Below are positions 6,091 to 64,000 of a DNA stretch of 64,000 nucleotides, one piece after another; position 1 is the first letter of the stretch, and each line of letters starts with the position of its first letter. Source of the stretch: a virus. A program made the translations under genes and the position numbers. The notes under the pieces were generated by a model. The model ran no database searches and was not told the origin of the DNA. It worked only from the letters and a program-made list of their open reading frames with translations. The DNA lies in the IMG/VR virus record IMGVR_UViG_3300045988_147517, positions 55,186 to 119,185 of that record; one strand, 5' to 3'.

Positions 6091-6165
6091 TGGTGCGGGG
6101 ACTGGGAATCGAACCCAGTTTTCAGGCGTATAAGACCCGCGCACTAACCGATGTACTATCCCCGT
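6091..6165 (-). tRNA. tRNA-Ile (anticodon UAU), CCA encoded
   Basis: Hand-folded cloverleaf: U8, A14, GG in the D loop, anticodon loop CUUAUAC, T arm CTGGG-TTCGATT-CCCAG, 3' ACCA. Position 1:72 is an A-C mismatch. Confidence 0.75.
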
Positions 6166-28744: not shown

Positions 28745-30691
28745 ATGAAGAATCGACAATTTTATATAGTAAAACTAAATAGTTCTGATTTAAAGTATTT
28801 CAAATATACTTTAGAGGGGGATTTTGATATTTTTAAAAAGCGCGACCAGATAGCCGCGGTGGCAGATAGTCAGACATTAAGGTTGATTAGAGAACTTACA
28901 AATAAAGATGTAGACTTGGAAGAGATTGAGAAGTTATACAAAAAAAGAGATTGGCTCAAAAAACAGGAGAGCACACAGGCCGCTTCAAATGAAATTGCTT
29001 TTTTGCAACGTAAGATTAATAACGCTATGTTTATTCCAGAATATGTCACAGTCACCATGAGTGGAAATAAACAATATGAGTATTTGTTCGAAAAAGGATT
29101 TGAGCTTATTATAGATGGTAGGCGCATTCATTATAAGCGATTGTCATGTTCGGCAGGGCAGGCTCGTGTTTCTACTGTTGTATTCTGTGATAGTAATATT
29201 ATTGATGAATTGGAGCGTCGATTAAACAACGGACGTGATATGAACTTTAAGATAGCGCCATCTAAATTCAATGCATACTTTGGATTATATACTTCCGCAA
29301 CTAAAGTAGTTAGCGAGCCTAACTTTTGTGTTGTGCCAGACTATGAAAATAATTTGGATGTAGAGGTAAATTATGTAACTGAAACGGATTATGATTCGGA
29401 CGATTTAATTGATACGCGAACCGTCAACTTAGGGTTTAACCGAACTGATGGGATGGGGCTAATAAATTATGAACGCGCCTCTAAATGGGCAGAAGAGTTA
29501 GGGCTAGATTATGTTCCGGCCCAATTTTGCATACGACAATCATTTATTAAGGGAATGTTGTGCACCTTTCCCATTCAAGAGTTTTGTGAGCTTGTTAATT
29601 ATGGTAATTATATCACAAAAGATATTTATGGCGCTGAAATAGATTTGAGGGACTATGATGTTATTTTAACGGAGAGCCAATTTAAATTGTGGGGTGCTTA
29701 TCCAAATCTTGATTATTACAAAGAATGTTGCCATAAAAATAATCTTAAATGGGGTGTAGCTATTTATACCCCTAAGCATGATAAAGATATTATCAAGATG
29801 AACTATCAATTTCTACAAACATTAGATTTATCAGACGAAGATATTGAAAATTTATGCTCAATGTTTGTTAATTGGATTCAGGGTGTAACTTGTGACAACT
29901 TAGGATACACGCTCCTCTATTTAATTGGAGAGGGTAAAACTGAAGAAGAAGTTCGGGCCTACATGCGTAGCCCGGATAACTATTGGATTAAATCTTTAAT
30001 TATGGAGCCGGAGTTAATTAAAGATAGGTATATCAAACAGAAGATATATCGCCTAATTAAAAAGCGCATTCAAGACGGTTGCCTAGGAGAGATTATTTTA
30101 AATGGCAACTTTCAGGTACTCGTAAGCGACCCATTTGGATTTATGCAACATGTATGCGGGTTAGAGCCAACTGGGTTACTTGGCGCTGATGAGTATTACT
30201 CTAACTATTGGAATGAGCGGGATGTAAAAGTGGTGGATGGTATGCGTTCCCCCTTGACATATCGCTCCGAACATGTTAAAATGAAGTTAGTGAGAAACAG
30301 CCGTATAGATTATTGGTATCGTTATATGTATACGGGCGTTGTTCTTAATTACCATGGACACGATGTAATGTGTTTTGGTGGCGCGGATTTTGATTATGAT
30401 ATTTTAGCCACTACTGATTGTCCAGAGGTGGTTAATGGTATATATCCAAATGAGTTACCTGTCTATTATGAGCCACCCAAACCAGCGAAGATAGTGCCTA
30501 CAAAAGAGGATTTGTTTAAATCAGACACATTCAGTTTTGGTTCTATCATTGGTAGCATTACAAATAAAGGTTCTAGCGGATATGCATTACTTTCCGACAT
30601 TGAATATATGTATGGGAAGAATAGTATAGAGTATGTTACTACGCTAAATAGATTAAAAATGTCTTGCAAGTTACAGAGCGCGCAAATTGAT
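28745..30691 (+). CDS. YonO/RdRP-like single-subunit RNA polymerase, exon 1
   Basis: VVDGMRSPLTYRSEH ... FGGADFDYDIL resembles the RnPxxHpgD ... GGDxDGD catalytic-barrel signature of QDE-1/RDR/YonO-type polymerases. The exon ends ...SAQID at a U, followed by an in-frame TAA at the start of the intron. Confidence 0.65.
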
Positions 30692-30965
30692 TAATGTTGG
30701 TCACTTCATAGGGAAACCTATGTCGAAACGTGGTGAACACTCAGAGAGTGGGTATACATATATTGTATGCTATCGGGGAAAGCTAAAGCCATAAGGTATG
30801 CCAATCCCGAGCCGAACACCTATTGGAGGTGGAGGTGTAACGACTATCCGCAAGGAGTAGCGCCATAGCGATATGGTGGCGAAGTGCCACGCCCCTAACG
30901 TAAAGCCGAGGGTGAAGATATAGTCTAGTCCCCTAACAAATATCGGGAAACCGAGGGTATGAACG
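30692..30965 (+). mobile_element. group I intron (274 nt, no ORF)
   Basis: Contains the canonical core GAAGATATAGTC and AACGACTATCCG; ends in G. Splicing joins ...SAQID to KAKIGREVKG... in frame. Confidence 0.75.
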
Positions 30966-31799
30966 AAAGCGAAAATAGGAAGAGAAGTAAAAGGAATTCC
31001 TAAAATATGGGTCAAACGCCAGAAAATAGAAGATGACGACGATGAACAAACGATTAAATATAAGGAGCGGATGAATTATTTATGTCTAGACAGGCATCCT
31101 TATTTTTTTATATATCGTTATGCTGATACCAGAAAGAAATATCGCAAGCACATTGACACTTATCAACATTGGTGCAAGACTTCATTTAGATTGTCTCTAG
31201 AGGAATTATTTAAGGTAGAAAATAAGACACAGCAACAAAAGGATTTTTTAGCTGGATATTTCCGTTATATGCCTGTTATTGATAGCAATAGTACGATGAA
31301 TCGTATTTGCCATTATATTGAAGGGTTGAATATGAATGTACGTAGCCACCTTAAAGTAAAAGAAGGGCACGACATGCATAAATTATTTATGCCTGATAAT
31401 ATTGAATGGAATGAAGAGCGCTACAATAATGTGGTAGAAGCCTATAAGCGTTATTGCAAGGAGTGCACAAAAATGAATTCTCTTGGCGCTTCTAATTTTG
31501 ATTTTGAGACAACGAAGGATTATGATTTTTACGCTTCTATGTTTATAGGAATGTTGTATTCCTATGTCAATGAGGTATGCAGTAATGTGTACGAAGCCAT
31601 TACATATTTGGCGCATTATATGTATGTGGAAAAAGATAGCGCCAATAAGGAAATGCTATGGCAAACATATGGGTATGAAATATATAGTATGATTAAGGAA
31701 AGAAATAGCGGTTACATTATGTTTCCACTAGAAGATGAAGATGGTGATATAGAGTATTTAAATAAAAGGTATTCTATGCAGGAGGTTTGTATTGATTGA
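30966..31799 (+). CDS. YonO/RdRP-like RNA polymerase, exon 2
   Basis: The frame is open from 30963. The junction restores QID-KAKIG, similar to the (A/S)xDxxKxG motif downstream of DxDGD in RdRP-type enzymes. Confidence 0.6.
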   Translation, partial: KAKIGREVKGIPKIWVKRQKIEDDDDEQTIKYKERMNYLCLDRHPYFFIYRYADTRKKYRKHIDTYQHWCKTSFRLSLEELFKVENKTQQQKDFLAGYFRYMPVIDSNSTMNRICHYIEGLNMNVRSHLKVKEGHDMHKLFMPDNIEWNEERYNNVVEAYKRYCKECTKMNSLGASNFDFETTKDYDFYASMFIGMLYSYVNEVCSNVYEAITYLAHYMYVEKDSANKEMLWQTYGYEIYSMIKERNSGYIMFPLEDEDGDIEYLNKRYSMQEVCID

Positions 31800-32946: not shown

Positions 32947-33022
32947 TGGGGTATAGCCAAGTCGGTAAGGCACCAGACTTTGACTCTGGGATGCGTAGGT
33001 TCGAGTCCTTCTGCCCCAGCCA
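32947..33022 (+). tRNA. tRNA-Gln (anticodon UUG), CCA encoded
   Basis: Acceptor TGGGGTA/TGCCCCA, anticodon arm CCAGA-CTTTGAC-TCTGG, T loop TTCGAGT, 3' GCCA. Confidence 0.8.
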
Positions 33023-33196: not shown

Positions 33197-33270
33197 GCCA
33201 CTATAGCATAACGGTAGTGCGAATGATTTGTAATCATTTTATCGGGGTTCGACTCCTCGTAGTGGCTCCA
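33197..33270 (+). tRNA. tRNA-Thr (anticodon UGU), CCA encoded
   Basis: Acceptor GCCACTA/TAGTGGC, anticodon arm AATGA-TTTGTAA-TCATT, T loop TTCGACT, 3' TCCA. Confidence 0.8.
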
Positions 33271-33470: not shown

Positions 33471-35006
33471 ATGTTTATTGAAAATTTACGAAATACTTTA
33501 AATGATGAAAAACAACTGACAGAGAATGGCGCTTTAGGGTATAAGACCAGCGGGCATAAGCTTGTTGATTTAAACTTTAGAGCTTCTACACTTCGGTATG
33601 AAGAAGATGAAAAAATCAAAAGTGCGTTTCTAGACGCTTTTGCACAAGAGCCAGAAATGGCAGTTAAGTGGTTATTCTTTGCGAGAGATATTCGTGAGGG
33701 TATGGGAGAACGTAGAGTGTTTAGAGTTATCATTCAACACCTGTGTAATTCTTATCCCGACCAAATGTGTGAAATTTTGGAATACATTCCAGAGTATGGG
33801 AGATGGGACGATTTAATTTATATCATTAAGAGAAGAGTTCCTGATAAAATTTTCAACAAGGTAGTTGGTATCATTGTAAATCAATTACGTGAAGATATGG
33901 AAAATGCATTAAATGGCAAAAACATTTCGCTTCTTGCTAAATGGATGCCAAGTGAAAAGTCCCATAATAAAGAAGCGCGCAATGTAGCCTACAAGGCTAT
34001 GAGTTTTCTTGGATTAACTCCTAGGAATTATCGTAAGATGATTTCTGGATTAAGGAAAACTCTTGATGTGGTAGAGCGTAAAATGAGTGCAAATGAATGG
34101 TCGTTTATTAATTATTCATCCGTTCCTTCAAATGCGAATTTGAAATACAGGAATGCATTCAATAGACATGACCATGAAAGATATAATGACTTCTTAACGA
34201 AAGTATTGACAAAAGAAGCTAAAATGAATTCTTCAACATTGTATCCTCATGAAATTGTTAAAAAATATAGAAGTGACGATATGTGGGAGGTTAGTTATTT
34301 CCCCGAATTTGAACCTGATTTAGAGGCATTGTGGAAATCCTTACCACGAGACAACTCTCTTAAGGATACAATTGTTGTTAGTGATGGCAGTGGCAGTATG
34401 TATACTACTGCGTATGGCGTTCAACCAATTGATGTTGCACAAGCACTTGCTATTTATTTTTCAGAAACCTGTCAGGGAGAATTTAAGGATAAATATATCA
34501 CGTTCAGCCAAACACCACAGTTAGTAGATTTTGGTAAGGCAGAGAATTTATTAGATAAGTTAAAAATTATTGATAAATATAACGAGGTTGCTAATACAGA
34601 TATCGAAGCTGTGTTTGACTTAATCCTAAAAGTCGCTACAGATGCTCATATGGCGCAGGAGGAAATTCCTAAGAATATCCTAATCATTAGCGATATGGAG
34701 TTTGATAGCGCTACATCTGCTCCGTTTTTTAGTGATGAACCATCAAGAGTGAATAAAACGTTATTTGATAGTATCTCTGAAAAATATCATAATGCTGGAT
34801 ATGAAATGCCAAAATTAATTTTCTGGAATGTGTTATCGAGAACCAATACCATTCCATTAAAGGAAAATGATTTGGGGGTGGCGCTATTAAGCGGATATTC
34901 TCCGGTTATTGCAGATATGATTATGTCGGGTAGGTTAGACCCATATAGCATTTTAATTGAAAAATTAAATAGCGAAAGATATAAAGATATTAAATTTAAA
35001 TTATAA
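33471..35006 (+). CDS. DUF2828-like / von Willebrand A (vWA) domain protein
   Basis: N-terminal TENGALGYKTSG...FFARDIREGMGERRVF; MIDAS-type VVSDGSGSM in the C-terminal half. Confidence 0.6.
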   Translation: MFIENLRNTLNDEKQLTENGALGYKTSGHKLVDLNFRASTLRYEEDEKIKSAFLDAFAQEPEMAVKWLFFARDIREGMGERRVFRVIIQHLCNSYPDQMCEILEYIPEYGRWDDLIYIIKRRVPDKIFNKVVGIIVNQLREDMENALNGKNISLLAKWMPSEKSHNKEARNVAYKAMSFLGLTPRNYRKMISGLRKTLDVVERKMSANEWSFINYSSVPSNANLKYRNAFNRHDHERYNDFLTKVLTKEAKMNSSTLYPHEIVKKYRSDDMWEVSYFPEFEPDLEALWKSLPRDNSLKDTIVVSDGSGSMYTTAYGVQPIDVAQALAIYFSETCQGEFKDKYITFSQTPQLVDFGKAENLLDKLKIIDKYNEVANTDIEAVFDLILKVATDAHMAQEEIPKNILIISDMEFDSATSAPFFSDEPSRVNKTLFDSISEKYHNAGYEMPKLIFWNVLSRTNTIPLKENDLGVALLSGYSPVIADMIMSGRLDPYSILIEKLNSERYKDIKFKL

Positions 35007-38137: not shown

Positions 38138-39142
38138 ATGGGAAGAAGCGTAATAAAAGCGCCAGAAGAAATGTTCACCTGTATCGAATGTAATGAGAAA
38201 AAGCGAAAAGCTGATTTCTATAAATCATATCATCCAGATAGCAAGGACGGGATAATTCCTTATTGTAAAGAATGCTCTCGTAAAAAATGTTCGGATGAAA
38301 AAGGTAGAGTAGTTAAAGAGAAGTTAATGAACTTCCTTAAGGATGAAAATGTTAATAAGCCATTTATAGAAGAAGTGTGGAATATTAGTGTTTCTGATAA
38401 AAGAGAAACGCTTGGCATATATATGCGTAACCTAGCTTTAACAAAGTACAGAGATATGGGTTGGAGTGACGGAGAAACAAATGCGTACACTGGCGGTTTA
38501 ACAATAGATGATTTAGATGGAAGTTATCATAGTACGGATTTTGAAGTAACACCAGAAATTATGAAAATGTTTGGTGAAGGGTATTCAGAAATGGAATATA
38601 AAGTCATGTATGATAAATATGATAAACTAAGTCCGTTTTATGCAATGCCTACTCCATTCCATCGGGAAGCTTTAATGAATTACGTTAGGGCAAAAGCAAA
38701 AGAGGAAGTTGCTATTACCCAGAATAGAATGACTGATGCTAAGTTTTGGGGCGATATTGCTCGTCAAGCGGCAAAGGATGCTAACATAAATCCTAGCCAG
38801 CTAAGAGAGCAGGATACAAAAGATGGTTTAAATAGCTTTTCTAAGATATATGAAGAAGTGGAACGTGCTGTTGACATCGTTCCAATATTACCAAAATTCA
38901 AACACCGCCCAGCGGATTCAGCAGATTTTATTATTTATACCGAGGCTCTTTATGTAAGAGATTTATTAGGAATGCCGCCATGTTCTTATGAGGATGTTTA
39001 TTCGTTCTATGATAGAGCGGTAAATTCTTATCTGGAACGATATGGTGATAAATATGGTATTTTTACAGATGACCCAACTATGGAAAATAGGCCAAGAATA
39101 CGAGCATTTCTAGATGAATGTAAGGATATCGTAGATGGCTAG
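38138..39142 (+). CDS. zinc-finger protein, possible small terminase subunit (by position only)
   Basis: CIECNEKK...CKECSRKK; overlaps the start of the large terminase gene. Confidence 0.35.
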   Translation: MGRSVIKAPEEMFTCIECNEKKRKADFYKSYHPDSKDGIIPYCKECSRKKCSDEKGRVVKEKLMNFLKDENVNKPFIEEVWNISVSDKRETLGIYMRNLALTKYRDMGWSDGETNAYTGGLTIDDLDGSYHSTDFEVTPEIMKMFGEGYSEMEYKVMYDKYDKLSPFYAMPTPFHREALMNYVRAKAKEEVAITQNRMTDAKFWGDIARQAAKDANINPSQLREQDTKDGLNSFSKIYEEVERAVDIVPILPKFKHRPADSADFIIYTEALYVRDLLGMPPCSYEDVYSFYDRAVNSYLERYGDKYGIFTDDPTMENRPRIRAFLDECKDIVDG

Positions 39143-42100
39143 TTATAACAATTTTAGTCAAGCTGTTCAGCGGGAACACCAAAGGCGCGCTGGTCTGTTA
39201 GGTGAAGTTAACACAGTAAAATTTAAAAGTGATGGTATGCAGGATTCTTTTGATAGAAATTTAGATAAATGGATTTATTTTTCGTCATGGAGTCGCTGGT
39301 ACCCAGATTTGTTTTTAGATTTAATTCACCCTAGTGACGGTGGTATTGTATTAGATTTAGACCAAAGAGTATTCCTAAGAAGCATATTAAGATTTGTGAG
39401 TGTATACGGAGTGTACCCCCGTGCATATGGAAAATGCGAAAGCTTGAATAGTTATTTGTATACCGACAAAGGAATGTTACAGCTCTCAGATTTTATTGAT
39501 AGCAAATATGAATATCATGCATCTGATTTCGACACAGTCAATAAATATGGTGAAATGGAGCATACCTACTTGGCCACATATAATGGGTATAAACCAACAC
39601 TTAAGATTAAGACGAAGTATGGGTATGATAATGAATGCACAGATAATCACAGGCTTATGGTTATGGAAGAAGATGGGAATCTCGCTTGGAAATATGCTAG
39701 AGATATTAGAGTTGGAGATTATATATGTGTAAATCGTCATAATAATATATGGGGAAATTTAACAGATATATCTTATGCTACAAATAATCTTTGTGAAAAT
39801 ATTTCTAAGTTATGTAATAAATATAACTTTATCACTGAGAATACACCAGATTTTTCTTATTTAATAGGGTTATTAGTTGGGGATGGCAACACAACACTTA
39901 AATCACAAATTACCTTAACATCGGCTGATAGTGAAATTTCAGATTTCTTTATTAAGTATGTTAAAGATAATTTTTCTTATGATGTTCAAAAATATGGAAA
40001 GTATGAATATAAAATCTATTCGACTTATTTAAGAAAATGTCTATATAATTTGGGCATAAAATATGATACGTCTCATACAAAGGAGATTCCGAGATTTATC
40101 CGACAATCACCAAAAGAATGCTGTAGAGGTTTTTTACAGGGGTTATTTGACACTGATGGTGGTGTAGAGCAAAAAATTGTTTCATATGCTACTACTAGCG
40201 AAGAACTTAGTAGGCAAGTACAATTAATGTTATTGAATTTTGGAATTATTTCTAAAAGAGTATTTTGTGACAGAGGTGAGTTTAATCATTGGCGCATTTA
40301 TATAATGGGAGAGAATGTTAATATTTTCTATAGCAATATCGGATTTAGGTTAAGTAGGAAGCAGGAACAACTTAGGTCGATATTAAAACCTGTTAATGAA
40401 ATAAATACGAACACAAATTATATACCATACCAGAAAGACAATGTAAATGACTTCTTTGAATATATTAAGAAAAAAGGAGAGCATAATTCTCAAATATTTG
40501 ATAAATTTTATCATGTAAGAAAAGGAAATAATGAACTAACATATAACAAAGCTACCATTTTATTGGATGAATTCCACTCTTTTAAAGATTGCGGAGACGC
40601 TCCACAATTATTTGGTATAATAGAAAGAGATTATTTTTATACTCCTGTTGTTGGAATTGAAAATTCTGTTGCGGAAACAGGGGATATAAATATGCCGGAC
40701 ACTAATTCATGGATATGTAATGGAGTTGTATCTCATAATACCTTTATAGAAGTTTTATCCTTATTCTTAATATGTATGTTTTATCCGAATATCGAAGTAG
40801 CTATGACCGCACAAACTCAAGCGAATGCGGCTAAGATGCTAAAAGATAAGTATAATGAAATCATACGATATTGGCCTATATTAAAAGATGAAATAAGTGG
40901 ACGGCCAAGTTTCAACAAAGATACTGCCGAGATAAGGTTTGTCAATGGCTCTATTATGAATGTATTGGCGAATAACCAAAACAGTAAAGGGCAGAGACGT
41001 AAAAGAATTAATATTGAAGAGTCTGCGCTACTTGACAACGTAGTGTTCGACGATGCTTTAAAGCCAATTGTTGACTTCCCACGATATACTGTTGGTAAAT
41101 TGGCCATGGTTAATCCAGAAGAAATCAGCCAGAGAATTGATTTCTTCACGACAGCGGGTTTTCGTGGTTCAGATGAACACAACCGAAGCATTAATATGGT
41201 GGAAGGTATGGCAAATAATTCTGGCGAGTTTGTTACTGGCGCTGATTGGAAGTTGGCCGCATGGTATGGCCGTGGTACAACCGTTGAGCAAATGGCTCAG
41301 AGAAGAAAATCTAGCTCCTCCATATCTTTTGCTCAGAACTATGAAAGTAGATGGGTTGGTGCTTCTGAGAATCAGTTAGTTGACATCAACAGATTGTTAT
41401 CGTGTAGAAACTTATCATTACCAGAATTTGAACGGGAAGATGATAACGATGAGTATGTATTTGGCATTGACGTTGCTCGTTCTCAAAAAGATGACAATAA
41501 TAGAAGTTCAGTATCCATATTAAAGATTATTAGACATTCTAACAATTCGGTAAAAGAGATAAGACTGGTTAATCTTATTATTATTCCAAATGCTTACACA
41601 TTTACAGCACAAGCCATAGAGATAAAGAGGCTCTATAATGTCTTTAGGCCAAAAATGTGCGTTATAGATGTTAACGGTTTGGGCGTTGGGCTTAAAGATG
41701 AACTTCTAAAAACCCAGATAGACCCGGGCACAGGTGAGAGTTTGGTTGCATGGGATACAATCAATACTGGTGATGAATCTGAGGTTGTTGGCGCTGAGCA
41801 ATGTTTATATGGATTATATCCTCAGCAGGCTCAAAGCAAAATTACAGTTACATTTATGGATATTGTAAGTAGTGGCAAGTTACGTTTGTTAGAACTTAAA
41901 GATGATTCTTCTTTAGATTTATTCTCTAAGGATGATGTTTTGGCGTATGCGCCATTCAAACAAACTGATGAACTGGTTAATGAGATTATTAACCTTAAGG
42001 TAAAATATAATAATAACGGTTCTCTTGGGATTGAACGTGTTGTTAATAATATTGATAAGGATAGATATACATCCTTAGCATATGGTGTATGGTGGATTAT

Positions 42101-42221
42101 GGAATTTGATAATCAAGCTAATAGCGAAGATGGCACGATGTCACAATTCTTTAAGAAAGTTAATAGGAATGCTATAACTGGTGGTTCGCCTACACGTTTA
42201 ATAAAAAAAATATTTCGCTAA
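39135..42221 (+). CDS. terL: terminase large subunit precursor (contains an intein)
   Basis: Walker A YPRAYGK/T is split by the intein. Downstream ATPase region and RNaseH-like nuclease (VFGIDVARS). Confidence 0.8.
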   Translation: MASYNNFSQAVQREHQRRAGLLGEVNTVKFKSDGMQDSFDRNLDKWIYFSSWSRWYPDLFLDLIHPSDGGIVLDLDQRVFLRSILRFVSVYGVYPRAYGKCESLNSYLYTDKGMLQLSDFIDSKYEYHASDFDTVNKYGEMEHTYLATYNGYKPTLKIKTKYGYDNECTDNHRLMVMEEDGNLAWKYARDIRVGDYICVNRHNNIWGNLTDISYATNNLCENISKLCNKYNFITENTPDFSYLIGLLVGDGNTTLKSQITLTSADSEISDFFIKYVKDNFSYDVQKYGKYEYKIYSTYLRKCLYNLGIKYDTSHTKEIPRFIRQSPKECCRGFLQGLFDTDGGVEQKIVSYATTSEELSRQVQLMLLNFGIISKRVFCDRGEFNHWRIYIMGENVNIFYSNIGFRLSRKQEQLRSILKPVNEINTNTNYIPYQKDNVNDFFEYIKKKGEHNSQIFDKFYHVRKGNNELTYNKATILLDEFHSFKDCGDAPQLFGIIERDYFYTPVVGIENSVAETGDINMPDTNSWICNGVVSHNTFIEVLSLFLICMFYPNIEVAMTAQTQANAAKMLKDKYNEIIRYWPILKDEISGRPSFNKDTAEIRFVNGSIMNVLANNQNSKGQRRKRINIEESALLDNVVFDDALKPIVDFPRYTVGKLAMVNPEEISQRIDFFTTAGFRGSDEHNRSINMVEGMANNSGEFVTGADWKLAAWYGRGTTVEQMAQRRKSSSSISFAQNYESRWVGASENQLVDINRLLSCRNLSLPEFEREDDNDEYVFGIDVARSQKDDNNRSSVSILKIIRHSNNSVKEIRLVNLIIIPNAYTFTAQAIEIKRLYNVFRPKMCVIDVNGLGVGLKDELLKTQIDPGTGESLVAWDTINTGDESEVVGAEQCLYGLYPQQAQSKITVTFMDIVSSGKLRLLELKDDSSLDLFSKDDVLAYAPFKQTDELVNEIINLKVKYNNNGSLGIERVVNNIDKDRYTSLAYGVWWIMEFDNQANSEDGTMSQFFKKVNRNAITGGSPTRLIKKIFR
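39435..40739 (+). mobile_element. intein with LAGLIDADG homing-endonuclease domain (435 aa)
   Basis: Starts with Cys (CESLNSYLYTDKG); block B TDNHRLMV; LIGLLVGDGN and LQGLFDTDGG; ends VVSHN followed by Thr +1. Confidence 0.8.
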
Positions 42222-42245: not shown

Positions 42246-43919
42246 GTGGGAAACAAAGAAAAAAAGAAGAAGCTCATACAGGATAAGCCCGCTACTCCTG
42301 AACAGATGGAGTATATTAACAATACTCTTAAAGGTTTAGGAATGGGCGATTCCATAGAAGAGTTTGCTTCTAGGTTTGTTTCAGATAGTTATAGAGCAAA
42401 TTTTGCTACTACTCTATCAAAACAACTCCAAGCTACTCAGGCGATTGCCGATGGCTATGCCAAAGACGGGACTTTTCAACCTCAACTGTCAGAACAACTT
42501 TATCAACAATTAAATATTAATCCTCTTGTTGCAACATCAGAACAGATTGACAGATGGCTTCAAGAGCCACAGTATTTTGATAATGAACTAAGAGGGTTAT
42601 CACAATATTTAAACTATTCTGTTGGTCAATATCATCGGTCTTTATGGTACTTTAATACTATAAAGTCATTTAACTATGTGTTAAATCCAACAGACATTGA
42701 TAACGTGGATAATGTATCCAACCAAGACTATTTACATGCCTATGAAATTTGCTTAAAAACTCTTAGGAATATGAATATCAAATATCAATTCCCAAAGATT
42801 GATTTGCAAGTAATGGTAGATGGCGTTGGTTTCTATTGGATTGCAGAAACGGATGATACAATTTCATTTTTGCAACTGCCATCTGAGTGGTGTTATATTG
42901 TAGCGCCATGGACATATGGATTCCAGTTTGCATTTGACCTTACATATTTTGATAGATATGTAGGGTTGGAAATTGCCATTCCAGAACTTTATGAGGCATA
43001 TAATCATTTCGTTCGAATGCGAACAAGTACAAATCTTTCACCAGAAAAGATTCAGTATTTACAATATTATCCGGTTCCAGTTGAAAAGAGTTGGGTATTT
43101 ACTTTTGACCCGGTTCATCCAGATAAGGTTCCACCGCTTAGTTCTTCTATGGGTGCGGCCTTAGATGTTATTTCATACAAACAACTTTTGAAGGATATGT
43201 TGGCGCTTGATTTATTCAAGGTTATTGCGCTAAAGATTCCATTAAAAAAAGATGGAAACAACATGGTGCTATCTTATAATGAAGCAAGAGAAATAACTCA
43301 GGTTATTCAAGATTCATTACCTGAAAACATTATCGCATATTCTTCCCCATTTGATTCTGAAAGCATTTCAGTTAATCAGACGGATAGATTTTCAGATATT
43401 GTTGGCATTTCTAATAATACATTTTATAGTAATGTCGGTGTTTCTGATGGTAATTTTGGCTCTAATCAAATTAGACAGGGGACTGCGCTACAGTTTGCGT
43501 CCACAGTTGATTTTGCTTATGCTAGTACGCATATGTATTCTCAGTTTTCTAATTGTGTTAATTGGATTTTATCACAAAAGACGAGAAAATACAAGTTCAA
43601 TGTTTCCTTTTTTGGAAATAAATTGAACGACCAAGCGGAAACGAAGTCATATGCAGATTTGGTTAGAACTGCAAATATGCCTGTAATGAAGTTGTTTGCA
43701 TACGCTGGGTTTGAACCATTTGAGGTAATTTCCACATTGCGACTTGAATCTGAATTAGGAATCAAGGATTTGATGGAACCACTTACGAGTGCATTCCAGA
43801 AGTCAGCAAAGGATAGCGGAAAACCTAACGGAAGACCAAAACAAGATGTTGTCTCTGACGAAGGGCAGAAGAGCAGGGATTACGGACCGATTTCCCCGTA
43901 TGGTATAAGGGATGAGTAA
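42246..43919 (+). CDS. portal protein (by position and size)
   Basis: About 557 aa immediately after terL. GTG 42246 lies 7 nt after GGGAGGT; the track uses TTG 42231. Confidence 0.55.
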   Translation: MGNKEKKKKLIQDKPATPEQMEYINNTLKGLGMGDSIEEFASRFVSDSYRANFATTLSKQLQATQAIADGYAKDGTFQPQLSEQLYQQLNINPLVATSEQIDRWLQEPQYFDNELRGLSQYLNYSVGQYHRSLWYFNTIKSFNYVLNPTDIDNVDNVSNQDYLHAYEICLKTLRNMNIKYQFPKIDLQVMVDGVGFYWIAETDDTISFLQLPSEWCYIVAPWTYGFQFAFDLTYFDRYVGLEIAIPELYEAYNHFVRMRTSTNLSPEKIQYLQYYPVPVEKSWVFTFDPVHPDKVPPLSSSMGAALDVISYKQLLKDMLALDLFKVIALKIPLKKDGNNMVLSYNEAREITQVIQDSLPENIIAYSSPFDSESISVNQTDRFSDIVGISNNTFYSNVGVSDGNFGSNQIRQGTALQFASTVDFAYASTHMYSQFSNCVNWILSQKTRKYKFNVSFFGNKLNDQAETKSYADLVRTANMPVMKLFAYAGFEPFEVISTLRLESELGIKDLMEPLTSAFQKSAKDSGKPNGRPKQDVVSDEGQKSRDYGPISPYGIRDE

Positions 43920-44851
43920 TGGGTGTTTTAAAGGATTTAACCGGAAAACGGTTTGGAAGACTAGTTGTTATTGAGCGCGCTGAGACAAAAATTTCTCCGA
44001 GTGGAAACCACAGGACACAGTGGTTATGTCAATGTGATTGTGGAAATAAAAAGATAATTCCCGGGAGCACATTGGTTCATGGTGGTACGCAGTCGTGTGG
44101 GTGTTATCGTAAAGATGTAATTCGTAAGAAGCGTGGAAAAGGCCATAAAGGCTTTTGTGAGGAGCTTGAGAAAATATATCCCAACGAATTCAATGTATTA
44201 GAACAATATCAAAATGTTGATACCCCCATAATGGTAGAGCATAAAATATGTGGATATCGTCGCAAAGCAAGGCCTCAGGATTTGTTAGATGGCACTGGTT
44301 ATTGCCCGAAATGTTCTAAGAGAGTTCATAAGGATACAAAATATTTCAAACAAGAAGTGTATGATTTAGTTGAAGATGATTACACTGTGTTAGGTGAATA
44401 TACTGGTGCGAATGATAAAATATTAATGCGCCACAATAAATGTGGTAATGAATATGAAGTTACGCCAGATAAATTTTTACGAGGACGTAGGTGTCCTAAA
44501 TGTAAACATTCTATTGGTGAAGATAAAATCGAAAAGATATTGAAAGATAATAATATATCTTATATACCTCAACATAGATTTGCCGATTGTGTATACAAAC
44601 AACCTCTTATCTTTGACTTTTATCTTCCTGACTTAAATATATGTATTGAGTTTGATGGAGAACAGCATTATAGGGCTGTTGACCGTTTTGGAGGAGAAAA
44701 AGGTCTTAGGCGAACACAGCTAAGAGATTCTATAAAAGATAATTATTGTAGGGACAGCGGCATTAAAATGGTACGCATTCCATATAATTATATGAATATT
44801 ATAGAAGATGTTTTAGTTGAAGAGGACATTATTGAAAGGAAGTGTTTTTAA
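43919..44851 (+). CDS. free-standing endonuclease-like protein (zinc ribbons plus a Vsr/PD-(D/E)xK-like C-terminal domain)
   Basis: LTGKRFGRLVVIERAE N-terminus, several CxxC pairs, and C-terminal PLIFDFYLPDLNICIEFDGEQHY...RD..K. Confidence 0.5.
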   Translation: MGVLKDLTGKRFGRLVVIERAETKISPSGNHRTQWLCQCDCGNKKIIPGSTLVHGGTQSCGCYRKDVIRKKRGKGHKGFCEELEKIYPNEFNVLEQYQNVDTPIMVEHKICGYRRKARPQDLLDGTGYCPKCSKRVHKDTKYFKQEVYDLVEDDYTVLGEYTGANDKILMRHNKCGNEYEVTPDKFLRGRRCPKCKHSIGEDKIEKILKDNNISYIPQHRFADCVYKQPLIFDFYLPDLNICIEFDGEQHYRAVDRFGGEKGLRRTQLRDSIKDNYCRDSGIKMVRIPYNYMNIIEDVLVEEDIIERKCF

Positions 44852-58118: not shown

Positions 58119-59156
58119 ATGTCAGGAAGAAAAACAGTTTATAATAATATTGTAACAAATGAAGATTGGGAAGAAGTTTGTGAACATAATAAAGATTTGG
58201 TAGAAGAATTTAACCAATATAATAAAAGTGTTGACCGTTCTCCACAAACTATCAAGCAATATAATTATCAGCTTAGGATATTTTTTATTTGGAACTTAAA
58301 GTATAACAAAAATAAACCTTTCTATAAAGTTAAAAAAAGAGATTTCATAAAATATTTTGGATGGGTAAGTGAAGAACTTGGCGCTAGTCCAAATAGGATT
58401 GCATCTTTAAGGGCAGTTTTAAGTAGCCTGTCCAATTATATTGAACGGTTTTTAGACGAAGAAGATGAATATGAAAGTTTTAGAAATGTTGTCAAAATTA
58501 TAGAAGCCCCAACAAAAATAGCGGTTAGAAAGAAAAGTGTTTTTTCTGAGGAAGAAATAAATGATTTATTGAACAATCTTGTCAAGAATGAAAAGTATCA
58601 AATTGCCTGTTGCCTTGCGTTGGCAGTTGCTAGTGGAAGTAGAAAAAGCGAACTCATTCAGTTTAAGTGTGATTGGTTTAATGAAGATAATATTGTATTA
58701 GGATGTATGTACAAAACACCTGAAACGATTAGGACAAAGGGCCGAGGAAAAATGGGGAAACCGTTAGAAAAGTACACTTTTGTTAAACAGTTTAAACCTT
58801 ATTATGATATGTGGATGATGGAGCGCCAAAAACTCGGTATAGAGAGTGAATGGCTTTTTGTACGGCTTGTAAATGGAGATTGGGTTCAGGCGATAGATGA
58901 TACGTTATCTTCATGGGCTGATACAATCAATCGTTATACAGAAAAAGATTTTTACTTTCATGCTAACCGTCATTTATGGACAACCAATCTTAAACGTGCT
59001 GGTATTCCATCAGATGTGATAAAAGAATTGCAAGGATGGGAGAGCGAAGAAATGGTCAGTGTTTATTCTGACCTAGACGTTTCTGAAACGTTAAAAAAAT
59101 ATTTTGATGAGAATGGGATAAAGAAAATAAATCAAACAAATCTGACCGACTTATAG
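58119..59156 (+). CDS. second tyrosine recombinase
   Basis: SGSRKSEL (Arg), HANRHLWTT (HxxR), LQGWESEEMVSVYSD (Trp...Tyr). Confidence 0.75.
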   Translation: MSGRKTVYNNIVTNEDWEEVCEHNKDLVEEFNQYNKSVDRSPQTIKQYNYQLRIFFIWNLKYNKNKPFYKVKKRDFIKYFGWVSEELGASPNRIASLRAVLSSLSNYIERFLDEEDEYESFRNVVKIIEAPTKIAVRKKSVFSEEEINDLLNNLVKNEKYQIACCLALAVASGSRKSELIQFKCDWFNEDNIVLGCMYKTPETIRTKGRGKMGKPLEKYTFVKQFKPYYDMWMMERQKLGIESEWLFVRLVNGDWVQAIDDTLSSWADTINRYTEKDFYFHANRHLWTTNLKRAGIPSDVIKELQGWESEEMVSVYSDLDVSETLKKYFDENGIKKINQTNLTDL

Positions 59157-59179
59157 ACCCCATTCGGAAGAGGATTTAA

Positions 59180-59938
59180 ATGGCTATAAGTAGAGAGTAT
59201 AAGGTTAAGATAAAGGCTACTGTTGACCCTAGTGAAATTTCTAAACAAATAGAGGCCTTAAGTAAAAATAGTAAAATAAAATTTGATACTGGCGGTATTG
59301 ATGCGGTTGGTAAAAGTGTTGGAAATACGAGCAAACAAGTTAAAGGATTAGGAACTCTAGTAGATGGAGTGTTTGGAAAATTTAACTTATGGTATGGAAT
59401 TGCTCAACTTTCTCACCAAATCTATAGTGCAATTGGAGACGTTGTAACCAATACGATAAAACTAGATACTGCAATGACAGGTTTAGCAAAAGTAAGCGAT
59501 ATGTCAAAACAGGATTTAACAGCGTTTGCTAAATCTGCTGGCGAAGCAGGGGTTGAAATAGGAAAAACAACAACTCAGATGATTGACGCGGCTACAGTGT
59601 TTGCACAGGCTGGATGGAGTGACCCGGGCGAATTGCAACAACTCGCCACTATGGCTGGTATGTTTACTAATATCGCAGACACTCAGACGAGTACGGCAGA
59701 ATCCGCAGAATTTTTAATTGCTACTATGAAGGCATTTAATTTGACAGCCGATGACACAGAGCATATTATTGATGCGGTTAATGAAGTATCAAATAAATAC
59801 GCAGTAAGTTCGGGTGACCTTGCATCATCTGTTGGTAGAGTTGCTTCTACACTTGCTATTTCTGGTACAACGCTAGAACAGACCTTAGGGTTAATGACCG
59901 GGGCGACAGAGATTGTCAGAAATCCGGGAAAAGTGGCT
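59180..59938 (+). CDS. tail tape measure protein, exon 1
   Basis: Typical TMP N-terminal region; ends ...RNPGKVA, followed by an in-frame TAA at the start of the intron. Confidence 0.7.
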
Positions 59939-60241
59939 TAATTTTAGGTCGGATATATGGTAACATATATTCAAAAACACTCTAATTGACGGGAAACCCC
60001 TTAGAGCTTTATCAACCAACCTATGATGGTGACATACATAGGGGCTTGACGTAATGGTTAAGGTATGGTAAAATAGATAAAGATTGGGCAATCCGCAACC
60101 AAGCATCTCAATGAGATGAAGGCTCAACGACTATCCGAGAGGAGTACATATCAAGTGATGTGGAAATGGGTGTCCCCTCACATGAGGGTGAAGATATAGT
60201 CTAGTCCCCTAACAAATATCGGGAAACCGAGGGTAGAAACG
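59939..60241 (+). mobile_element. group I intron (303 nt, no ORF), paralogue of 30692-30965
   Basis: A 52-nt block at 60184-60235 is identical to 30908-30959 (GAGGGTGAAGATATAGTCTAGTCCCCTAACAAATATCGGGAAACCGAGGGTA). It shares AACGACTATCCG, the 5' TAAT start and the 3' AACG end. Confidence 0.75.
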
Positions 60242-63200
60242 AATGGTTTAAAAACAATTTCATTGAGGTTACAAGGAATGACAGAGGCCGCTGATGGTTC
60301 GGTAGAATCAGTGGATGGCTTGTCATCAAAAATGCAAGAAGAATTTAGTCAAATTGGTGTAAGTATAACAGATGCTAACGGTCAAATTCGAAGCACTTAC
60401 GATATATTAACTGATATAGGTGCACAATGGCCAAACCTAACACAGAATCAGAAAGCATATTACGCAGAATTGGCCGCGGGCAAAAACCAAGCGAACATTT
60501 TTATTGCGTTAATGGATAATATCGGCACCGCTGTAGCCGCTACAGCAACAGCTTATGATAGCGCTGGTTCTGCCGCAGAAGAAAATGCTAAACGAATGGA
60601 CTCTATTCAAGGTCATATTGAAAAATTTCAAGCCGCATGGGAAAAGTTTACGACATCTTTTGCCGACAGTGATTTAATAAAGAATATTATTGATATGGGA
60701 ACTGCGCTAGTTGAATTTGGAACTACTGATACCGGGAAAGCCGTACTTGGCTTAACGGCTATCACTGGTGCTTTTATAAAACTTAAATCTGTGTTTTCTG
60801 GGATAAAAGCTTTGTCGTCCGGCACATCATTACTTGAATCTTTATTTGGCGCTGGTAGTGCCGTTTCAACTGCTAAGAATGCAGAAAAAGCTATTGAAGG
60901 TGTTGGCAAGACAGCAAAGAATACTATGAGAGATGCCGCTGATGCGGGAGATACACTTTTTGACGTATTTGCTAATATTAGAAGAGGTGCAGACAATTCA
61001 GGAAAAGCGGTAGAGAGTGTAGCGGGTAATACGAAGAACTTAGCAAAAGCCGCTGGTGAAACCGCAGAAGAAGTTGCTAAAGTAGGAGCAGAGTCTACAA
61101 AAGCGGCTACAAGTGGTGGAATGCTTTCGAAAGCATTAACTGCTATAGGCGGCCCTACAACTTTAGCTATTGGCGCGTCTGTTTTAGCTATTGGTGGCAT
61201 GGTTTATGCAATGGATAGGGCATCAAAGGCCGCTGGCGAACATCAAGATGCTTTGGTTGAAGATGCTCAAAATACAAAAAAAGCATACGATAATACAACA
61301 AAAGCAATTGAAACAAACGATAAAAGAATCGCTCAGTTAAAAGAAACTATTGCGGGGATTCAAGAAAAGGGAGAATTGACCCTTGTTGATGAACAAAATT
61401 TAAAAAATGCTCAACGTGAATTATCACAGTTAGAATTACAACAAGATGGTTTACGAAAAAAACAAAAGCGTCAGCAAGAAGAGAATCAAAGGGCAAATGA
61501 GAGGGCTTTAAAGGAAACTTCTAAGATTAGTGCTTTTAGTGGGCTTGGTTCTTTAACCGGAAAAGATGTGACTATTCCTCAAGAAGCTGATGAAATTATC
61601 AAAGCAATGAGTCAACTTCAAGCATCTTGGACTGAGACGGGAGAAATTGGGAAAAGAGTTAATGAGGGAACCTTTAAAAAACAACAGGAAGAACTTGAGA
61701 ATACTCGCCAACGTATGATTGAATTACGGGAAGGGTTTGAAGTTGGAAGTGAAGGATACGATTTGCTTACTTCTAAAATTTCTAACATAGATAATTATTT
61801 AGATAGAACCGCTCCTCTCATGGAAAGAAACGTAGAAGCCGCAAAGAAATATGGAAACGCTTTAGTCCAAATGGGAGATGAATCGAAATCCGTAAAAGAT
61901 ATTGCAACCAATTTAAACGACCTCACTTCTGCTCATGCGTCTGGCGTACTAAGCACTGAAAATTATATATCAGAACTTAGAAATGGAATAGACCTAATGG
62001 CTTCAACAACTGAAGTAGCGGGATACAAGATAAAAGATATCTTGAATATGTCTGACCGAGAATTTCAAAACTTATCTTCATCTGAACGTGAACAAGTTCT
62101 TGCGGCACAAACTGCGTGGACTATGTATTCAGACACCTTACAGACAACATTAGAAAATGCTCAGGTTGCATATGATTCGACTGGAGAAAGTGGCGTAGAA
62201 AGTTTCAACACTATAAATGATTCAGCTAGAGCGGCACTGGATGTTATTACTGAACAAGAGGGGTTAACAGGAAGTATCGAAGAAGGTTGGTCTGGTGGTA
62301 GCCAAGCCGCTAGAGATTACGCAAATAATTTAAGTAATGTTATTCGAGAAATGGATAGTCTTAGTGGCGCTCAAGATTTGGTGTCTGAAAGCTCAGACTT
62401 AATGCATCAAATCATGTCCGATAATATCAATGGAATGAGTACCGAAGTATGGGAAGGAACAGAAGCAGGAAAACAAGCTTTGGCGGATTTTAGTGCTGGC
62501 GCACAGACTAGTTTACAAGAATTACAAGATAGTAATGATACTGCTTGGCAAACATTTAAATCTACTATTGAAGAAAGCACAAGTGGTGCATACGATGCTC
62601 TTATTGACGAAAATGGAAGGCTACGTGATGACATTCAACTAACAGGCGACCAATCTGTAGATGTTTTTAGTGCTTTACAAAGTTTGCTAGAGAGCAATGT
62701 TCCCGGAGCCGCTGAGTTTGCGGCGGGTGCTTTGGCTACAATTGGTCAGACCGCTACAGATAATACTGCTCATCAAGATGCTTTGAATAATTCTATTCAG
62801 TCAACTGGTAGTATGTCAGAGTCTGCGGCAAGTGTCTCTACTGGTGCATGGGGTGGAACAGCCGCCGCTGTTGATAATACTAAAAACAAAACTGGATTAT
62901 TGGGCGGTGCATTTAGTACGGCTGGTTCACAAGGTAGTAGTGCTGGTACTAATATTGCTGGAAAATTTGGAGAAGCTTCTGGTCAAATTGATGGCGCAAA
63001 AGGTAGTACAGACCAACTATCTGGTTCTATGCAAGGTGTTGGTTCTAGTGCTGATGGCGCAAAAGGTAGCGTTGGTGGATTATCTGATGCTATTAATGCC
63101 GTTCCAAGATTTGTTGAAGTCGTCTTTAATGTTGTACAAAATGTAACAAAAAGTATAAAAGAAGTTTTCTCTGGTCAAAAAGCAACTGGCGATGACTATA

Positions 63201-64000
63201 TCGACGAAACAGGTGCTTACCTTGTCGGAGAAAACGGGCCAGAGTTAGTAACGCTACCTCGTGGAGCGGGCGTAGCAAATGCTAGAGAAACTCATAATTT
63301 TAGAAATATGTTACGAAATGGTCGTGGTGGTTCCGGTGGTATGGTTTCAATAGGCTCAGGAGCCTCGGATGAGTTGGAAAAAACTGCCAAGAATCTATTA
63401 AAAGCTACCAGAACTCTTAATGCTAATGTACTTTCCCTTGGGGTTAATAAGCAGGCCACACCATCTGTTGCAAGTTCTTCTACTGGAGGAGTACAAGCTC
63501 GTGCCGCTTCATACGATGACCCTCATAAGAAGAATTTCGATGCCGCTTATGATGAGCTTAAGTATCTTCAAGACATGGATAGAATCAGCGAAGCGGATTA
63601 CCTTAATCGTCTTGAAAATCTTAACAATTCCTACTTTGGCGGCAGGATGGAATACCTTGAAGAATATCGTAAGTATGAAGTTGAAGTATATAAAGGTCGT
63701 AAGAAACTTCAAGAGCAGGCAGAACGCGATAGGGAAAAGGCTGAAAAAGACCGGATACAATCCGTCAAAGACAACTTCAAGAAAGAAGAAGATGCTCTTG
63801 AATACATGAGGGATAAAGACCTTATCACAGAAGAAGAGTACTATCGTCAACTAGCCGCGCTAAACGATAAATATTACAAAGGTAAAACAGAGTTCTTAGA
63901 CGAATATCAAAAATATGAGATTAAGGTATATGAATATCTTAAGAAAAAAGAAGAAGAACGTCTAAAAGAACTTAAAGAGCAAACAGAAAAACAATATGAA
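60242..64000 (+). CDS. tail tape measure protein, exon 2 (runs off right edge)
   Basis: Frame spot-checked open at many points from 60242 to 64000. Begins NGLKTISLRLQGM, the typical TMP core motif. Confidence 0.7.

Follow-up and report, generated by a model that had tools for sequence, protein, structure and literature searches.

The tape measure protein (TMP) gene of an uncultured phage of ~100 kb, distantly related to the siphophages of Enterocloster bolteae, is, as judged from its sequence, interrupted inside the most conserved motif of the TMP by a 303 nt element (TMP-b, positions 59939..60241 on the + strand of the window, which here means the whole 64,000 nt stretch of DNA analysed) that is predicted to be a self-splicing group I intron. 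The explanation that best accounts for the observations as a whole, to which a probability of about 0.88 is assigned, is that TMP-b is an endonuclease-less group I intron belonging to a family of paralogues that have a conserved 3' module in common and whose spread is most likely driven by homing endonucleases. The window intron is a well-supported further example of a known family of phage introns and not a new phenomenon, since the TMP introns described in Bacillus prophages (Tourasse & Kolsto 2008, PMC2504315) represent the same phenomenon. It belongs to a lineage with unusually many introns, and what is less ordinary is found mainly in the sister genome or the lineage: three introns within 55 coding nt, the swapping of domains, and a YonO-like host gene.

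Exon 1 of the TMP gene (59180..59938, + strand) appears in the list of ORFs as 253 codons ending ...EIVRNPGKVA, and exon 2 (60242..64000, + strand) is still open where the window ends. As an earlier, sequence-only reading had described, a TAA codon (59939-59941) follows directly after ...RNPGKVA and the TMP reading is picked up at 60242 (NGLKTISLRLQGM) with its phase unchanged; both can be read directly from the sequence, and joining 59938 to 60242 produces an open frame of 1505 codons that reaches the end of the window. The spliced TMP matches the Pfam family PhageMin_Tail (PF10145, TP901 core) with 90.4 bits against a cut-off of 33.2, and because the match occupies residues 121-329 it crosses the junction. 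The gene is located downstream of tail genes, and "tape measure protein" is the annotation of homologues in PMBT24, Basilisk and others. When the spliced TMP was compared with Enterocloster phages PMBT24 and CB473P1, both of which are intron-free at this position (site b), a single tblastn piece of 37% identity was obtained, in which the junction EIVRN-PGKVA|NGLKTISLRLQG of the window aligns with EIIPNQASRIA|RGLRSITLNLQG of PMBT24/CB473P1. The corresponding gene of contig L020, exon 1 of which is 79% identical, is also uninterrupted at site b and reads ...GGTAAGGTTGCA|AATGGCTTA... through it (also written ...CCGGGTAAGGTTGCA AATGGCTTAAAAACT...). Exact removal of the intron gives the unbroken conserved gene that is present as the L020 and PMBT24/CB473P1 alleles, and the predicted spliced TMP is colinear with intron-free homologues once the 303 nt are removed.

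Gene callers split the TMP into two ORFs, an annotation problem that this analysis corrects. Many TMP fragments in a large protein database stop at the same motif, and introns account for several of those that were checked. Fragments P0059-P0062, the first of which stands for 41 member sequences, were rejected as intron cases: their reading frames are frameshifted instead, ending within the conserved motif (L010 4150-4300; Logan ERR4341808_2802), perhaps through errors of assembly or because they are pseudogenes. When region 59000-62000 was compared with phage genomes by megablast, no close relative was detected and short matches to the intron core were the only result, and a search of IMG/VR with the TMP N-terminus returned only the two sister contigs. 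Immediately upstream of the TMP gene, within the tail module, is a gene of the PF00589 tyrosine recombinase/integrase family (58119-59156), which is kept at the same place in contigs L020-L023; PMBT24 is without it and has a RuvC-like gene directly before the TMP gene.

The identification of the interruption as a group I intron is upheld by Rfam model RF00028, which cmscan aligned over its full length (model positions 1-253) to 59929-60224 with a score of 65.1 bits (E 3e-14), the cut-off being 50. According to the cmscan alignment and explicit pairing, helix P1 (59934..59951, + strand) pairs UGGCU|UAA with the guide sequence UUAGGUCG in 8 bp, with a U59938.G59947 wobble at the 5' splice site, and the guide sequence of each paralogue is complementary to its own exon. 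P2 (59953..59970, + strand) is a hairpin of 7 bp with a GNRA loop (AUAUAUG-GUAA-CAUAUAU), of which compensatory variants are found among the paralogues (CAUAGG-GAAA-CCUAUG and UAUACA-GUGA-UGUAUA). The 5' strand of P3 (ACACUC, 59977..59982, + strand) has its partner GGGUGU at 60168-60173, and three paralogues have fully compensatory replacements of the helix (CGUGG/CCACG, AUACG/CGUAU and GUGUGUG/CGCACAC). The P4-P6 domain (59988..60124, + strand), which has a large P5 extension, was placed by the model alignment, and its limits, set by sequence anchors, are approximate. The 5' strand of P7 (GACUA, 60129..60133, + strand, from cmscan) has its partner UAGUC at 60197-60201, and the motif AACGACUAUCC at P7 is unchanged across all paralogues; P7 and J8/7, being invariant, are uninformative for compensatory changes; those observed are in P2 and P3, which are compensated in three or four paralogues. 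Between the P7 5' and P3 3' strands is an insert of ~35 nt (60134-60167 in the cmscan alignment), and TMP-b resembles the IA2 introns of Firmicute phages, a likeness that follows from its similarity to Herelleviridae introns. The terminal G (omega-G) at the 3' splice site, read from the sequence as G60241 (+ strand), is the only one with which the conserved motif VA|NGLKTISLRLQG and the reading frame are both recovered. Inside 59939-60241 no + strand ORF exceeds 27 codons, in keeping with the earlier statement that the intron encodes no endonuclease; an exact search of JGI metagenome contigs with the P1-P2 string of the window intron did not find it.

The sequence-only reading had also placed a second, homologous intron in a polymerase gene; the intron and the homology stand, and its host is better described as a YonO-like RNA polymerase gene of the RdRP family. 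This gene (28745..31799, + strand; exons 28745-30691 and 30966-31799) encodes a spliced product of 926 aa that matches Pfam RdRP (PF05183, E 4e-8, above cut-off) and contains the motif GGADFDYD, features of what we take to be the YonO-like two-barrel class of RNA polymerases; for this reason it is considered not to be a DNA polymerase. The homologue in PMBT24 is annotated as an RNA-dependent RNA polymerase. The intron (30692..30965, + strand) is 274 nt long without an endonuclease gene, and scores 41.4 bits with RF00028 over 30692-30947, below the cut-off of 50 (E 5e-9 locally, 3.7e-7 for the whole window). Both Bacillus phage BUCT082 (54% identity) and PMBT24 read through the junction ...SAQID|KAKIG... 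without a break, and at the same codon boundary CB473P1 has a different, endonuclease-bearing intron, an insert of ~1.1 kb in which group I core motifs accompany an HNH-like ORF. Three tRNA genes are present in the window (6094-6165 on the - strand, 32947-33019 and 33197-33267 on the + strand), the latter two just downstream of the RNA polymerase gene; adjoining them, 33471-35006 encodes a protein of 511 aa that matches DUF2828/DUF7788 and, weakly and below cut-off, vWA.

Both introns begin with TAAT (TAATG in the RNA polymerase intron) and end with AACG (GAACG), as had been observed, and a block of 52 nt in TMP-b (60184..60235, + strand) is identical to 30908-30959. The identity is exact and maximal, with no extension in either direction, and the block comprises the P8 3' strand (GAGGG), J8/7, the P7 3' strand, and the P9 region, which includes the hairpin CGG-GAAA-CCG. 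It has only two copies in the window, even when 3 mismatches are allowed, and none in 100 shuffles. Outside their last 58 nt the two introns are 40-45% identical, which agrees with the earlier remark that their 5' halves differ; for paralogues this divergent, the MAFFT alignment could not be relied on across P3-P6 of the RNA polymerase intron. A query of the 58 nt matched 226 phage records at ≥90% identity, and the sequence GATATAGTCTAGTCCCCTAA[C/T]AAATATCGGGAAACCGAGGGTA is found one base apart in polA and terL introns of Staphylococcus, Bacillus, Listeria and Brochothrix phages: over the 43 nt from GATATAGTC to GAGGGTA, a single C-vs-T difference separates the window from the polA introns of Staphylococcus phage phiSA_BS1 and Bacillus phage Grass and the terL introns of Brochothrix phage A9 and Listeria phage AG20. 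In IMG/VR, the T variant is present in nine further contigs and the C variant in only two, which come from one metagenome and are both sisters of the window. The C variant is common to the RNA polymerase, terL, TMP-b and TMP-d introns of this lineage, and beyond the family-wide baseline the two window introns have no more in common than that one base and five bases in the P8 strand. Because nearly the same sequence occurs in polA and terL introns of other phages, the block is not evidence of recent duplication; it corresponds to a near-invariant 3' catalytic module (P8'-J8/7-P7'-P9), which recombination between copies may have homogenised further. The single C/T difference is thin evidence for a recent shared ancestor of the 3' modules of the lineage.

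Over long stretches the sister genome IMGVR_UViG_3300045988_129962 and the window are ~97% identical, and their spliced TMP coding sequences agree at 96.1%, but within 55 coding nt of the TMP motif the sister has three introns where the window has one. Intron a, inserted after ...LMTGA, is 1126 nt long and contains an endonuclease ORF of 257 aa; it is followed by a mini-exon of 33 nt (TEIIRNPGKVA; 4853-4885 of L007, the 129962 sequence), by intron b (302 nt), the orthologue of the window TMP-b, by a second mini-exon of 22 nt (5188-5209 of L007), which encodes NGLKTIS and the first base of a Leu codon, and by intron d (270 nt). With all three introns removed, the sister TMP differs from that of the window by 3 amino acids in 676. 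The 60-nt bin that contains the three intron sites (spliced coding sequence 721-780; window 59900-59990) holds 14 of the 80 nucleotide differences between the two coding sequences and one of the three amino-acid differences, and other 60-nt bins mostly have 0-4 differences, the highest having 8. This cluster of mostly synonymous differences suggests co-conversion; it could alternatively be caused by adaptation of P1/P10 pairing or by escape from endonuclease cleavage.

The earlier proposal that relatives be surveyed for intron-plus and intron-minus alleles was carried through, and both were found. Site b is filled in the window, in 129962 and in 118521 but empty in L020, and the occupancy of sites a, d and terL differs between the window and the sister genome, so that presence/absence polymorphism exists among close relatives. 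The sister terL gene has an insert of ~335 nt, taken to be a group I intron, that contains the C-variant module and is located exactly at the position of window 41159|41160 (FFTTAG|FRGSDE), where the window has none. The window terL gene (39135-42221) contains an intein with a LAGLIDADG domain (Pfam Intein_splicing and LAGLIDADG_3), and the intein segment of ~1.3 kb (39435-40736) is missing from the ~97% identical sister contig. In more distant relatives the TMP gene is interrupted in this motif as well: that of L009 at site a, with P1 GCGGGU/GCUCGC; that of L012 two codons past site b, by an intron with an Rfam score of 50.5 bits and an ORF inside; that of L013 near the same place as L012 (38.5 bits); and that of CB457P1 by an insert of 1166 nt after ...GGKTQV, a fifth site. 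At E thresholds of 0.001-0.01 or below, RF00028 gave no detection in L009, CB457P1 (L003), the CB473P1 RNA polymerase gene (L019) or the sister terL gene (L025), and these introns were assigned from core motifs, P1 pairing and exact insertion relative to intron-free alleles; together with the 41.4 bits of the RNA polymerase intron, this means that part of the family rests on core motifs and precise presence/absence. Since relatives have intron-plus and intron-minus alleles, intron mobility in the lineage is, on these alignments, real. The earlier reading is confirmed in its description and partly in its interpretation: of its suggestion of recent duplication or mobility within one genome, mobility is retained, and recent duplication, which had been read from the 52 nt, is not, the module being near-invariant across phages.

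Comparison of the introns domain by domain indicates that P4-P6 has been swapped between neighbouring TMP introns. The orthologous b introns of the window and the sister are 98% identical in P1-P3, 79% in P4-P6 and 98% from P7 to the 3' end, and the orthologous a introns of the sister and L020 are 90%, 73% and 65% identical in the same domains; between non-orthologous introns, sister b and sister a are 62%, 92% and 54% identical, and window b and L020 a are 61%, 87% and 44% identical. A 21-nt hairpin, CCCCTAACGTAAAGCCGAGGG, occurs as P8 of the RNA polymerase intron (window 30892-30912) and recurs in sister intron d, where it takes the P5 position (L007 5267-5287), one hairpin in two structural contexts.

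The exchange of P4-P6 between neighbouring introns, which is directly visible, the 21-nt sequence common to P8 of the RNA polymerase intron and P5 of sister intron d, and the presence of the lineage C variant in all four copies favour the view that the paralogues are old and that their 3' modules have been homogenised repeatedly by gene conversion during replication or homing, rather than kept alike by selection alone. This is a serious possibility, although somewhat less probable than its opposite, because the block is nearly as conserved between phages for which recent recombination is not possible, and the 3' module has no demonstrable conversion tract boundary. A more elaborate modular interpretation, which is considered rather unlikely in full, would have the family consist of a constant 3' cassette combined with an exchangeable 5' guide and P4-P6, and colonise new genes by this combination, with endonuclease-less copies taken to fixation through co-conversion with an adjacent intron that bears an endonuclease or through a free-standing endonuclease acting in trans, and would make the TMP motif a landing pad with at least four sites in ~60 nt and exons as short as 22 nt. 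If it were true, the short exons could permit exon skipping: the 33-nt exon is in frame, and skipping it would delete 11 residues and give a variant TMP.

Recent intragenomic duplication or transposition, perhaps by reverse splicing, with the identical 52 nt as the relic of a young copy, was the explanation offered originally, and it fares worse. The identity is exact, the C variant in IMG/VR is confined to this lineage, where it occupies all four intron locations named above, and the presence and absence of introns among ~96-97% identical genomes points to ongoing gain or loss. However, an intron that is only 40-45% identical to its supposed source outside the last 58 nt is not a recent copy as a whole, and the same 43-47 nt are found one base apart in unrelated genes of phages of four other host genera, so that identity of the block says almost nothing about time. 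A recent duplication is therefore regarded as improbable.

Among the neighbouring a and b introns, an endonuclease ORF is found only in intron a of the sister genomes and not in TMP-b. A free-standing gene of the window (43919..44851, + strand), located between the portal and endolysin-like genes, encodes a protein of 310 aa, and its earlier description as endonuclease-like is substantiated by matches to PHROG 559 (E 7e-72) and PHROG 9084, "homing endonuclease", the same two families that are matched by the ORF of sister intron a, to which it is 31% identical (E 3e-13) over the C-terminal 150 residues. Pfam returned zinc-finger and weak nuclease matches only, and a sequence search of the PDB with this protein gave no meaningful match; a PD-(D/E)xK fold akin to Vsr or DUF559 is suspected on account of the motif IE-x-(D/N)G-E-Q-H. 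The slot between the portal and endolysin-like genes is variable, and in the sister it is occupied by a different HNH-like ORF (L025 3580-4177).

In the proposed mechanism, which takes its splicing chemistry from the ribozyme family, the transcribed RNA would fold and an external guanosine would attack after U59938 in P1; the freed exon would then attack after G60241, joining Ala253 to Asn254. Translation of unspliced RNA would halt at the in-frame TAA. Lineage-specific paralogues, each with its own guide sequence, are present in the genes for RNA polymerase and terminase, and the TMP gene has at least two further sites that they occupy (b and d). At the DNA level, the introns would most likely spread by means of homing endonucleases, either cis-neighbouring or acting in trans, for which there are two candidate sources, the endonuclease-bearing intron 33 nt upstream in the sister genomes and the free-standing homologous gene at 43919-44851. 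Co-conversion may take flanking introns along.

Collaborative or trans homing by free-standing endonucleases is known from the cyanophage psbA intron with F-CphI and from the seg and mob genes of T4. The window resembles these systems in combining an endonuclease-less intron with a free-standing gene homologous to an intron-borne endonuclease, and differs in that the tie of 43919-44851 to any intron site is purely inferential.

Alternatively, the TMP might truly be split into two separate polypeptides by the decayed remnant of a ribozyme that no longer splices: exon 1 does end in a stop codon, and an ATG (Met264, ...LRLQGM...) is located 10 codons into exon 2. This is very unlikely, as the Rfam score is above cut-off with all core helices intact, the exon can still pair with the guide sequence, U.G wobble included, and the break falls in the middle of the PF10145 core, in a motif that is unbroken in every intron-free homologue; moreover, the conservation of the orthologous sister intron, at 98% in P1-P3 and in the 3' module, fits purifying selection. 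An assembly artefact, namely a chimeric join at the repeated block, has the mere existence of a repeat in its favour and is as good as dismissed, as the earlier reading's own worry on this point is countered by the same arrangement in independent assemblies (129962 and 118521 of IMG/VR; ENA and Logan contigs L020-L023) and by the position of the block within a complete ribozyme at each site, with flanking exons that are colinear with homologues.

The opinion that TMP genes are not a usual target of introns is contradicted both by the literature and by the present survey of TMPs. Group I introns are found at three sites in TMP genes of Bacillus cereus-group prophages, mostly without an endonuclease gene; IVS1 and IVS2 share 80% identity, are conserved more strongly in the core and differ in their P1 helices, and a homologous intron is present in the terminase gene of the same prophage (PMC2504315). 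TMP-IVS1, TMP-IVS2 and TMP-IVS3 (IA1/IA2) are thus like the introns of the window lineage in having several TMP sites, a conserved core and different P1 helices. The present case differs in the phage lineage and host group, in a sister genome with three introns in 55 coding nt separated by exons of 33 nt and 22 nt, and in the direct visibility of P4-P6 exchange between neighbours.

Introns of the IA2 type in Herelleviridae (Twort/K-like Staphylococcus phages, SPO1-like and Bastillevirinae Bacillus phages, Listeria P100-like phages and Brochothrix phage A9) have the same 3' module, GATATAGTCTAGTCCCCTAAYAAATATCGGGAAACCGAGGGTA, with one base different, and are 78-82% identical to the window intron over ~120-150 nt of the P3-P7 core. 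Such phage introns belong mostly to subgroup IA2, although "IA2" in phages is heterogeneous, and phage introns are found mostly in DNA-metabolism and terminase genes, according to a 2025 survey of Bastillevirinae (NAR, PMC11878797). The Herelleviridae introns mainly interrupt myovirus genes for DNA polymerase, ribonucleotide reductase and terminase, whereas that of the window is in the TMP gene of a relative of Enterocloster siphophages, and the 5' guide region and P5 extension of TMP-b are unrelated to theirs. The sister TMP is comparable to orf142 of phage Twort, likewise a tail structural gene with several closely spaced group I introns. Landthaler and Shub, in 1999, reportedly described the three group I introns of orf142 and exon skipping among them. 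The gene, from a Staphylococcus phage, encodes the tail tube protein, and its three group I introns are listed in the same survey (PMC11878797). The window itself has one TMP intron, three being present only in the sister, and this system, unlike that of Twort, is known from sequence alone.

For phage group I introns in general, exact identity of the 3' core is not to be read as a sign of recency. The near-identical uncultured genomes compared here differ almost only in selfish elements: in whether TMP introns a and d are present, in whether terL contains an intron or an intein, and in which free-standing endonuclease they have. These differences, together with the sharing and swapping of modules among the introns, make the lineage a natural comparative system for the spread of endonuclease-less introns, and they bear on an old question, left unexplained for the B. 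cereus-group copies (PMC2504315), of how group I introns that lack an endonuclease reach new sites.
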